From Chloroflexota bacterium (GTDB lineage: Bacteria > Chloroflexota > Dehalococcoidia > SM23-28-2 > RBG-16-64-32), in the NCBI GenBank assembly GCA_022564695.1, contig JADFKX010000003.1, positions 1 through 37,498 on the forward strand: a stretch of 37,498 nt of DNA, written 5' to 3'. This document shows, one piece after another, positions 7,986-9,141 of the stretch. Made by a program: the position numbers and the translations under genes. Positions within the stretch are counted from its first letter, which is position 1, and every line of letters starts with the position of its first letter. The notes beneath the pieces were generated by a model, which was not told the origin of the DNA, searched no databases, and saw only the letters and a list, made by a program, of their open reading frames with translations.

Positions 7986-8129
7986 ATGGCTGCACTGACG
8001 CGTATTCGCAGGAGCATGCATGGAGGTCAACTCTTGGCACCGCGGACTGAAGTCCGCGGCATGGTCTGTTGGAGCCGCGCACCATACCTACCGGCAGGCA
8101 GGCTTGAGTGCGCGGGGTGGGCTTCATAG
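7986..8129 (+). other. mini-ORF 1 (47 aa, MAALTRIRRS...) with degenerate atpG-like start and two hairpins
   Basis: ATG 4 nt after the atpA stop, open to TAG 8127-8129; translation not demonstrated. Confidence 0.4.
8040..8115. repeat. REP-like hairpin pair 1 with nested 21-nt insertion
   Basis: CCGCGGACT-GA-AGTCCGCGG (8040-8059) and CCGCGCAC[CATACCTACCGGCAGGCAGGC]TTGAGTGCGCGG (8075-8115). Confidence 0.75.
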
Positions 8130-8131
8130 CG

Positions 8132-8178
8132 ATGGCAACTCTGCGTGAGATAAAGCGTCGTATCCGCAGCATCGAGAG
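8132..8178 (+). repeat. 47-nt direct duplicate of the atpG 5' end (second copy 8269..8315, 1 mismatch)
   Basis: ATGGCAACTCTGCGTGAGATAAAGCGTCG[T/C]ATCCGCAGCATCGAGAG occurs twice. Confidence 0.97.
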
Positions 8179-8191
8179 ACGAATGGCTAGA

Positions 8192-8251
8192 CCGCAGCCT
8201 GAAGGCTGCGGCATCGATGGAAAGTTGCATGCGCCAGGCTTGAGCCTGGGG
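8192..8251. repeat. REP-like hairpin pair 2
   Basis: CCGCAGCCT-GA-AGGCTGCGG (8192-8211) and CGCCAGGCT-TG-AGCCTGGGG (8232-8251). Confidence 0.75.
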
Positions 8252-8268
8252 TCTAGGTATGCTGCCTA

Positions 8269-9141
8269 ATGGCAACTCTGCGTGAGATAAAGCGTCGCAT
8301 CCGCAGCATCGAGAGCACGGCCAAGATCACGCGGGCCATGGAGCTGGTGGCGGCGTCCAAGATGCGCCGCACCCAGACACGCGCCCTGGACGCGAGACCT
8401 TACGCGGAGAAGATGCGATGGGTGCTGGCGGACCTGGCGGAGACGCTCCCGTTTTTGGACCCGGAGACGCTGCATCCTCTCCTGCGCCGCCACGAAGAGG
8501 TGAAGGCCGTAGAGGTGGTGTTCATTGCCCCGGACCGCGGGCTCTGCGGCGGCCTGCCCTCCATCCTGAACCGTCGTATCGCATCGTTCATCCTGGAGCT
8601 GGAGAAGCCGGTGCGCGCCGTCGCCGTGGGACGCAAGGGGCGCGACTTCCTGCGCCGCACGGGTCAGGAAGTCGTCGCCGAGTTCATCGATATCGGCGAC
8701 AAGCCGGGCTACGAGGATTGCCGGCCCATCGCCCAGGTCGTCATGGAGGACTTCGTCGCCGGCCGGGCGGACGAGGTGTACATTATCTACGGCCAGTTCG
8801 TGAGCACGGTGGTGCAGCGGCCGGAGGTGTACAAGCTGTTGCCGGTGGAGCCGCCGGCGGAGGCCGCCACCTTCGGCGTAGATTACATTTATGAGCCGAA
8901 CCGTGAGGAGGTGCTGGCCGAGCTGTTGCCGCGGTACGTGGAAGGGCAGGTCTACGAGGCGATCCTAGAGGCGATCGCCAGCGAGCAGTCGGCGCGCATG
9001 GTGGCGATGCGCAACGCTACCGATAACGCTAACGAGATCACGGGCGACCTGACGCTGGTGTACAACAAGGTGCGCCAGGAGTCCATCACGGGCGAGCTGC
9101 TGGACATCACCGGCGGCGTTGAGGCTTTGAAAGGGAAATAG
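8269..9141 (+). CDS. atpG: ATP synthase F1 subunit gamma
   Basis: [48 protein letters not shown]. Confidence 0.99.

Follow-up and report, generated by a model that had tools for sequence, protein, structure and literature searches.

In the F-type ATP synthase operon of an uncultured Dehalococcoidia bacterium (Chloroflexota) from marine sediment, the genes for the alpha subunit (atpA) and the gamma subunit (atpG) are separated by a 287-nt spacer that holds a near-perfect copy of the atpG start and hairpins of the kind known as repetitive extragenic palindromes (REPs), arranged in inverted doublets (REPINs). Open reading frames (ORFs) run through the hairpins and stop beside the next start, similar duplications enclose small elements at other gene junctions, and the measured repeat periods all equal 2 modulo 3. 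We suggest that selection keeps translational coupling across REPIN insertions, a reading to which we give a probability of about 0.6; that the ORFs are translated, and how the duplications originated, we infer from the sequence. The junction lies in a stretch of 37,498 nt (GenBank assembly GCA_022564695.1, contig JADFKX010000003.1, positions 1 to 37,498), called the window below. Its source is a metagenome-assembled genome (MAG) of 240 contigs and 2.06 Mb that is 87% complete and is labelled G000, or 'own', in the comparisons. Numbers after G, C and L denote genomes, contigs and loci.

A copied atpG start in the spacer

The spacer contains a 47-nt direct repeat (8132-8178 and 8269-8315) with a period of 137 nt and 46/47 identical positions. 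The second copy is the beginning of atpG, and the first is subsequently referred to as the pseudo-start. No further copy was found elsewhere in the 2.06-Mb assembly. Two short ORFs connect the genes. ORF1 leads from just behind the atpA stop to just before the pseudo-start, and ORF2 begins at the copied ATG and ends in a TAA (8267-8269) that shares its final A with the atpG ATG. These coordinates confirm a preliminary description of the spacer, which had reported two ORFs without internal stops (47 and 45 codons), gaps measuring 4 nt and 2 nt, and an overlap TAATG. It was also right, by eye, that atpG has no clear Shine-Dalgarno (SD) sequence; the same is true of relatives with a short spacer. 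A Pfam search of both ORFs, which by the preliminary description might yield peptides mimicking the gamma N-terminus, gave no match.

The further proposal that translational coupling had been preserved fits the geometry of stops and starts. REPIN-A lies within what reads as an ancestral 27-nt spacer, and REPIN-B lies 12 nt before atpG, preceded by the copy of atpG nt 1-47. The copied start keeps its original upstream context and heads a relay ORF (ORF2) that ends on the true atpG start codon. In the mechanism that we envisage, ribosomes leaving atpA would re-initiate on ORF1, which would carry them from the atpA stop to the pseudo-start, and then on ORF2. They would unwind the REP hairpins in passing and reach the atpG ATG by termination-reinitiation, and the insertion would thereby leave gamma coupled to alpha. 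Variants with a period other than 2 modulo 3, or with an internal stop, would be removed by selection. At junctions other than atpG, the duplication seems to arrive with the insertion.

Junction duplications elsewhere and the frame rule

A search for other duplicated gene starts flanking such hairpins, which the preliminary description had suggested, was positive at several junctions. At least eight others in this genome carry junction duplications of 13-55 nt around small elements (Table 1; gene names at these junctions are from Pfam). They are derived states; genomes of the same genus show empty sites with one copy: at nuoC/nuoD in G001, G002, G004 and contig C342 of G003 (direct reading) and in G005 (match coordinates), at trpD and trpC in G004, at trpC also in G003, and at trpF in G001. 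At the trpG/trpD junction of G003, three successive trpD starts and two elements are crossed by one ORF, which begins at a GTG that overlaps the stop of trpG and ends in a TGA that overlaps the true GTG.

All 13 measured periods (13/13) are 2 modulo 3. They comprise those of this genome (Table 1) and, in relatives, 161 nt in G016, 395 nt in L150, 167 nt in L157 and 302 nt at trpD of G003. In the five start-type cases from the scan, the relay stop begins at -2 or +1 of the true start; nuoD, trpD, trpC and trpF have ATGA overlaps (trpC/trpF was read by hand), and the SRPBCC gene has TGATG. The length of the element alone is not constant modulo 3, being 90 nt at atpG and 91 nt at nuoD. Since the rule holds only for element plus duplication, it points to selection acting on the reading frame of the two together.

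Table 1. Features at the atpA-atpG junction (window positions) and junction duplications elsewhere in the same genome
Feature	Positions	Strand	Repeat identity (nt)	Period (nt)	Remarks
atpA (F1 alpha)	6470-7981	+			stop TAG 7979-7981; Pfam ATP-synt_ab, E 5.7e-82
Putative ancestral short spacer, 5' part	7982-7997	+			holds ORF1 ATG (7986)
ORF1	7986-8129	+			47 codons + TAG; begins 4 nt past atpA stop; crosses REPIN-A; ends 2 nt short of 8132
REP hairpin A1	8037-8064	+			stem 8040-8047 / 8052-8059; loop TGAA closed by C-G; R1 match 8032-8069, E 1.2e-5
REP hairpin A2, inverted	8072-8118	-			stem 8075-8082 / 8108-8115; CTCAAG loop variant on minus strand
Second hairpin family, CCTACCGGCAGGCAGG	8087-8102				nested in A2 loop; core CCGGCAGGCAGGC, 23 genomic copies
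Tail GGGCTTCATAGCG	8119-8131	+			resembles 3' end of putative ancestral 27-nt spacer (GGGACTTATAACG in G004); holds ORF1 TAG stop
Pseudo-start	8132-8178	+	46/47	137	copy of atpG nt 1-47
Relay ORF2	8132-8269	+			45 codons + TAA; begins at copied atpG ATG; reads through REPIN-B
REPIN-B	8187-8256				arms 8187-8214 + 8229-8256 (79% complementary, separated by 14 nt); strongest R1 match, E 9.9e-7
Tail GTATGCTGCCTA	8257-8268	+			provides overlapping TAA stop of ORF2
atpG (F1 gamma)	8269-9141	+			Pfam ATP-synt, E 2.8e-94; true repeat copy 8269-8315
nuoC/nuoD			16/16	107	
trpD start			24/24	131	
trpD/trpC			13/13	146	
trpC/trpF			20/21	110	
SRPBCC gene start			35/37	86	
dnaK ribosome-binding site			20/20	134	
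guaA 3' end			29/32	155	
SDR gene 3' end				179	

Some of these junctions have a more complex structure. In the trpD array of G003 (C303, L146), the middle pseudo-start begins ATGACC like trpD of G000 and G004, and the genome's own start and the first copy begin GTGATC; from this resemblance, the middle unit may have come from another strain by recombination. On C83 of the MAG (150-1150, L028), three guaA 3' ends (...DITSKPPGTIEWE, then the stop) lie in series, one of them after an element of a second family (family 2, see below). Another guaA 3' end lies beyond an 89-aa ORF, which has a weak PBECR2 nuclease-like match, and a REP hairpin, so that a small gene seems to have entered at the guaA 3' end, which was duplicated in the process. 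The dnaK locus (C85:5332-5480, L027) has three successive ATGCCT starts and a 44-nt ATCTGCG-rich unit in tandem (40/44); it is the stretch from SD to ATG that is duplicated there. Two further candidates were rejected upon inspection. A repeat on C37 (period 371) proved to be two tandem paralogous small genes and not an insertion, and an 81-nt repeat on C118 (period 180), located between convergent genes, consists of compound hairpins arrayed in tandem and is no junction duplication.

The hairpins of the spacer

Each of the two spacer units (unit 1 around REPIN-A, unit 2 at 8132-8268) holds two hairpins in inverted orientation, as in REPINs. The hairpins are common to both units: 8039-8062 corresponds to 8191-8214 (83%), and CAGGCTTGAG occurs at 8099 and 8235. 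Hairpin 1 of REPIN-B is 29/29 identical to C56:7011-7039 of this genome, the A2 composite with its nested hairpin recurs at C45:7666-7707 (42 nt, 93%), and inverted REP doublets are also found on C122, C198 and C146 and in the atp spacers of G003 and G022. Genome-wide, the exact CTGAAG loop with a 7-bp stem gives 24 hairpins, whereas six permuted loops give 0-1; with a less strict definition, 40 copies are counted. Across 22 copies, 7/8 stem pairs changed on both sides, the copies having been chosen for pairing, which makes the paired fraction circular. A covariance model of the family, R1, has matches in 20/31 related genomes, including all 6 of the genus, and 31 matches in the MAG itself among 150 candidates scored.

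One hairpin subfamily ends GCTACA (GTAGC on the other strand), and the subfamily of the window ends GGCATCG or GGCATGG. In G023 and G013, inverted CTGAAG hairpins flank a Y1_Tnp gene (1459+ and 1899- around a gene at ~1501-1854 in the former, 1465+ and 1867- in the latter), which is the signature of REPs with a REP-associated tyrosine transposase (RAYT). G002 has such a hairpin on one side only, 60 nt downstream of its Y1_Tnp gene; the other side is the contig end. By their sequence, the spacer hairpins are REP/REPIN-type elements; in relatives, members of their family flank Y1 transposase (RAYT-like) genes. Hairpins and transposase also occur separately: G025, G027 and G001 have 13-53 CTGAAG-hairpin matches and no Y1 transposase match, and the Y1 transposase family is present in G009, G011, G012 and G018, where no hairpin matched.

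Elements nested in the loops of others were seen at C56:7130-7190 and C174:10400-10500 as well as in the window (8087-8102) and at C45:7666-7707. A GCCTGCC hairpin is nested both in a CTGAAG hairpin (two copies of the composite) and in a GTCATTCTG...GAAGAATCT element, and one family-2 element lies within another. At C114:4512-4533, a GCCTGCCTACCGGCAGGCAGGC hairpin sits within a long minus-strand coding ORF and may have inserted in frame into a gene that encodes a protein.

History of the atpG junction

Two genomes of the same genus, G001 and G004, have an atpA-atpG spacer of only 27 nt, without any element. The stretch TAGCGCCATGGC (7979-7990) is identical to the start of this spacer in G004, and the 13 nt before 8132 (GGGCTTCATAGCG) align with its 3' end. 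As the ends of unit 1 match the two ends of the relatives' spacer, unit 1 reads as the old 27-nt spacer split by REPIN-A. The preliminary description had counted three successive atpG starts, the first of them at 7986. The copy at 8132 and atpG itself stand, but the first is not demonstrable: local alignment of 7986-8036 with the atpG start was equalled or beaten by 356/2000 shuffles and by 12/59 other 51-mers of the window that start with ATGGC. An alignment tolerating gaps was marginal, with 342/5000 shuffles as good against the own atpG start and 197/5000 against that of G001. We also dropped the idea that the 27-nt spacer of G004 is an older relic of an atpG start, because 596/5000 shuffles scored equally.

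We surveyed 95 genome loci and 77 metagenome loci for an atpG pseudo-start. It is present in this genome (breakpoint at nt 47 of the gene), G016 (nt 44), L150 (nt 45) and L157 (nt 45), and L169 has a 24-nt relic. The enclosed elements vary: a REPIN in the window, one GTCAYYCTGAGCG...CGAAGRRTCT (family-2) element in L157, and, in L150, several elements together with a remnant of atpG nt 37-54. The whole arrangement of the window (hairpin, tail, pseudo-start, decayed REPIN, atpG) is found in G016, which belongs to another genus. G003 (same genus) and G022 (another family) each have, at the place of REPIN-B, a single homologous REPIN, 15 nt and 11 nt before the ATG, and no pseudo-start. The 91 spacers measured range from 3 to 1096 nt. 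As the preliminary description would predict, hairpin-bearing spacers keep open frames, which end at -2 (own), -5 (G003), +10 (G016), -2 (G022), +1 (L150), -2 (L157) and -2 (L169) relative to the atpG start. In L150, a frame of 131 codons is open across 395 nt of mixed elements, and in G000, G003 and G022 the open frame crosses the REPIN in the same phase (RPQPEGCGID).

The simplest history for the window would have four steps: there was a short spacer; a REPIN inserted into it; a block of REPIN, tail and atpG nt 1-47 was duplicated in tandem, which would be the likeliest origin of the atpG copy; and the upstream REPIN diverged or was replaced. Because REPIN-B sits 11-15 nt before the ATG in G003 and G022 in the absence of a pseudo-start, such a tandem duplication would seem no less likely than a fresh insertion at nt 47. 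It had been claimed that repeated insertions regenerated the atpG start. Unit 2 does consist of a regenerated start and a hairpin pair, but, given the REPINs of G003 and G022, repeated insertion at the 5' end of the gene is not supported as claimed. Recurrent events at one atpG hot spot are possible.

Another kind of element, bounded by inverted short tandem motifs (GGAAGT/GGAACA, with the complement at the opposite end), occurs in the atpA-atpG spacers of L011, L012, L013, L017, L150 and L169. In L011, motifs of this type flank a whole hydrolase-like gene between atpA and atpG, and in L015 an enoyl-CoA-hydratase-like gene lies between the two.

Proposed selection for coupling and its alternatives

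Several observations weigh against selection for coupling as the explanation. The set of 13 periods is curated: two cases (trpD and the SDR gene) were missed by the automatic list and added by eye, and among the repeats enclosing an element that list has 6 with a period of 2 modulo 3 and 4 with 0 or 1. These 4 were set aside as chance or internal repeats, both copies lying in intact coding sequence or inside an element. The dnaK case is messier than the others: read from the first copied ATG, the ORF continues 13 nt past the true start, and an ORF ending short of that start, by 8 nt, is obtained only from the second copied ATG. Related genomes do not count as independent; one event may underlie the atpG cases, and likewise trpD of G000 and G003. 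A single open frame means little, as by a base-composition estimate a 45-codon frame is open by chance about 3 times in 10 in 64% G+C DNA. A flanking repeat score of at least 13 was reached by 5/109 hairpin clusters and by 13/1500 random controls. A Y1 transposase was not found in this genome (87% complete), and G025 has 53 R1 matches but no Y1_Tnp match. Finally, pseudo-start and true start agree in 46/47 positions (41/41 at trpD of G003) while the enclosed elements are about 20% or more apart, which coupling alone does not explain.

A broader proposal, which we consider tentative and rather unlikely, is that Dehalococcoidia-type Chloroflexota have an undescribed way to absorb mobile-element insertions at operon junctions: the gene start or end would be duplicated with the insertion, a relay ORF would result, and the copy would be kept near-identical by gene conversion. 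We found no description of long gene-junction duplications around REPs or REPINs in the literature searched, which consisted mostly of open-access main texts. The breakpoint at atpG nt 44-47 that four lineages share around different elements, the repeats that often begin at the start codon and the frame rule (13/13) would together speak for a specific process at the gene start (flap ligation or template switching) and not for selection on random events.

Among the alternatives to selection for coupling, the strongest is insertion with a long target duplication of 13-47 nt, produced by filled staggered breaks, a ligated flap or an upstream template switch, with in-frame outcomes selected afterwards; at atpG the entry point would be about nt 45. 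The single element between the copies at nuoD, trpC, trpD and the SRPBCC gene, with no second element upstream, argues for it, as do the empty one-copy sites of relatives and the atpG breakpoint shared around different element families. The rarity of recent bare tandem duplications also favours it: a scan for those with a period above 14 nt that is no multiple of 3 found one, at dnaK, a result that neither proves nor excludes that the duplication came first and the element later. However, the duplications have no fixed length (13, 16, 20, 21, 24, 32, 37 and 47 nt), unlike the target-site duplications of transposons and miniature inverted-repeat transposable elements, and no conserved motif is visible by eye at the junctions. 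About 100/109 hairpin clusters are without a flanking repeat of at least 10 nt. At atpG, a REPIN equally far from the ATG in relatives lacking the pseudo-start favours tandem duplication. A reverse transcriptase was considered as a source of variable-length duplications and rejected, because no RVT_1 match was found in the 87%-complete genome, which likewise yielded no Y1 transposase. We regard insertion with target duplication as possible, with the odds somewhat against it. Since most hairpin clusters have no flanking repeat, duplication is not a regular product of REP insertion; it is the exception, seen where insertion would otherwise cut a gene boundary.

Less probable is a regulatory device, in which REP hairpins stabilise the mRNA or brake ribosomes and set the alpha:gamma ratio of 3:1, with the relay ORFs as part of the tuning. 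The spacer does fold stably (minimum free energy -137 kcal/mol, z = -2.8, equalled by 0/100 shuffles), elements occur in it in several lineages, and REPs have been proposed as post-transcriptional control sequences (PMC3733652). Against it, the two same-genus genomes with the 27-nt spacer do without an element, spacer length varies over the whole range given above, and the same architecture is found at junctions without an obvious need for stoichiometry, such as the trp genes and the SRPBCC gene. Neither promoter-like nor terminator-like sites were found in 7700-8500, an absence that also supports coupling. A search of 7700-8600 against Rfam 15 with E up to 10 gave a sole, chance-level match to Rothia-sucC (18.5 bits against a gathering score of 64.5, E 0.87).

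It is still less likely that the spacer is neutral debris, with hairpins and copied start tolerated as junk, frames open by chance and atpG initiating alone. G+C-rich sequence has few stops, atpG has no clear SD in short-spacer relatives either, and most REP clusters need no duplication, all of which would agree with debris. It would leave the uniform periods (13/13) without a reason, as well as the relay stops that fall between -5 and +10 relative to the true starts of atpG, nuoD, trpD, trpC and the SRPBCC gene, the 131 open codons of L150 and the frame common to the REPINs of three genomes.

Misassembly of the spacer is excluded: as a check suggested by the preliminary description, we looked at Logan contigs that derive from 4 runs, each of a different study (metagenomes from marine sediment, other sediment and marine samples), and that together span all three junctions. 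Among the runs listed, none is recorded as RNA, and four labelled 'METATRANSCRIPTOMIC WGA' may be DNA. The junction of unit 1 with the pseudo-start is covered by X1 record 2 (7897-8160) and X3 records 20/21 (8092-8209), that of the pseudo-start with the hairpins by X1 record 4, X2 record 12 (8131-8218) and X3 records 20/21, and that of the hairpins with atpG by X1 record 5 (8189-8297, 0 differences), X2 record 13, X3 record 22 and X4 record 30. Two of these runs also contain the short-spacer allele of a relative (joints 7987->8126 and 7990->8126). Although this co-occurrence and the 240 contigs of the MAG might hint at a chimeric assembly of strain variants, the spanning contigs and the same architecture in G016, L150 and L157, all from other assemblies, make such an artefact vanishingly improbable.

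Comparison with known systems

REP and REPIN elements accompanied by RAYTs have been described before (PMC3116915, PMC3337134, PMC2817692). PMC3733652 counts Chloroflexi among the phyla with GTAG-tagged REPs, reports a conserved GTAG or CGTC tag at one REP end and states that REP ends can supply stop codons; the word 'duplication' is absent from its main text. The present hairpins resemble these elements in being short G+C-rich palindromes with covarying stems that occur in tens of copies, singly or as inverted doublets and mostly between genes, and in their inverted placement around the Y1 transposase gene of relatives. They differ in that no RAYT was found in this genome, in the GGCAT(C/G) end of the window subfamily, which is not GTAG, and in the gene-junction duplications of 13-47 nt that flank a minority of copies.

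Rickettsia palindromic elements are mobile palindromic repeats that are tolerated in translated sequence by keeping the frame open, and they join the host protein. In the present case, by contrast, reading through the element yields an ORF of its own, with its stop at the true start.

The mycobacterial interspersed repetitive units, or MIRUs, are small repeats in operons that insert at start codons, and empty and filled sites as well as tandem arrays are known (PMC12548453, PMC3184786). The ends of the MIRU ORF overlap the stop and start of its neighbours (-4 spacing), which has been proposed to allow insertion with little effect on expression (PMC12548453). In the window, too, the ORFs through the elements abut or overlap the flanking stop and start, and by analogy the coupling logic matches the one proposed for MIRUs. 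However, the MIRU ORF belongs to the element, whereas the relay ORF begins with the copied start of the host gene. The direct repeats are 13-47 nt of host gene and not tetranucleotides as reported for MIRUs (PMC3184786), at least two unrelated element families of variable length are involved, and the phylum is a different one; this comparison is by description, not by sequence.

Short upstream ORFs can deliver ribosomes to a gene by termination-reinitiation, and unfolding of the RNA by the upstream ribosome is one proposed mechanism (PMC12548453). The relay ORFs resemble them in ending at or next to the gene start codon. They differ in arising by duplication of the gene start and in enclosing a mobile hairpin, and their activity is presumed from this arrangement.

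The junctions described here show how a small, gene-dense genome (~86% coding by a rough gene call) can carry mobile hairpins in essential operons (ATP synthase, complex I, tryptophan synthesis) while those operons stay intact. Translation of the relay ORFs would make them a natural, recurrent case of termination-reinitiation with a rule that is searchable in any genome (period 2 modulo 3, stop on the start codon), and by this rule translational coupling could be tested directly in an uncultured phylum. Annotation pipelines would then have to take account of pseudo-starts, at which gene starts may be called wrongly. The long and variable junction duplications also raise the question of how REPINs and similar elements insert.

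By Pfam, the ATP synthase operon of the window comprises atpB, atpE, atpF, atpH, a DinB_2 gene, atpA, atpG and atpD. The DinB_2/MDMPI_N-family gene (5966-6460) follows atpH, whose stop overlaps with its start at 5966-5969, and precedes atpA, from which its end is separated by 9 nt.

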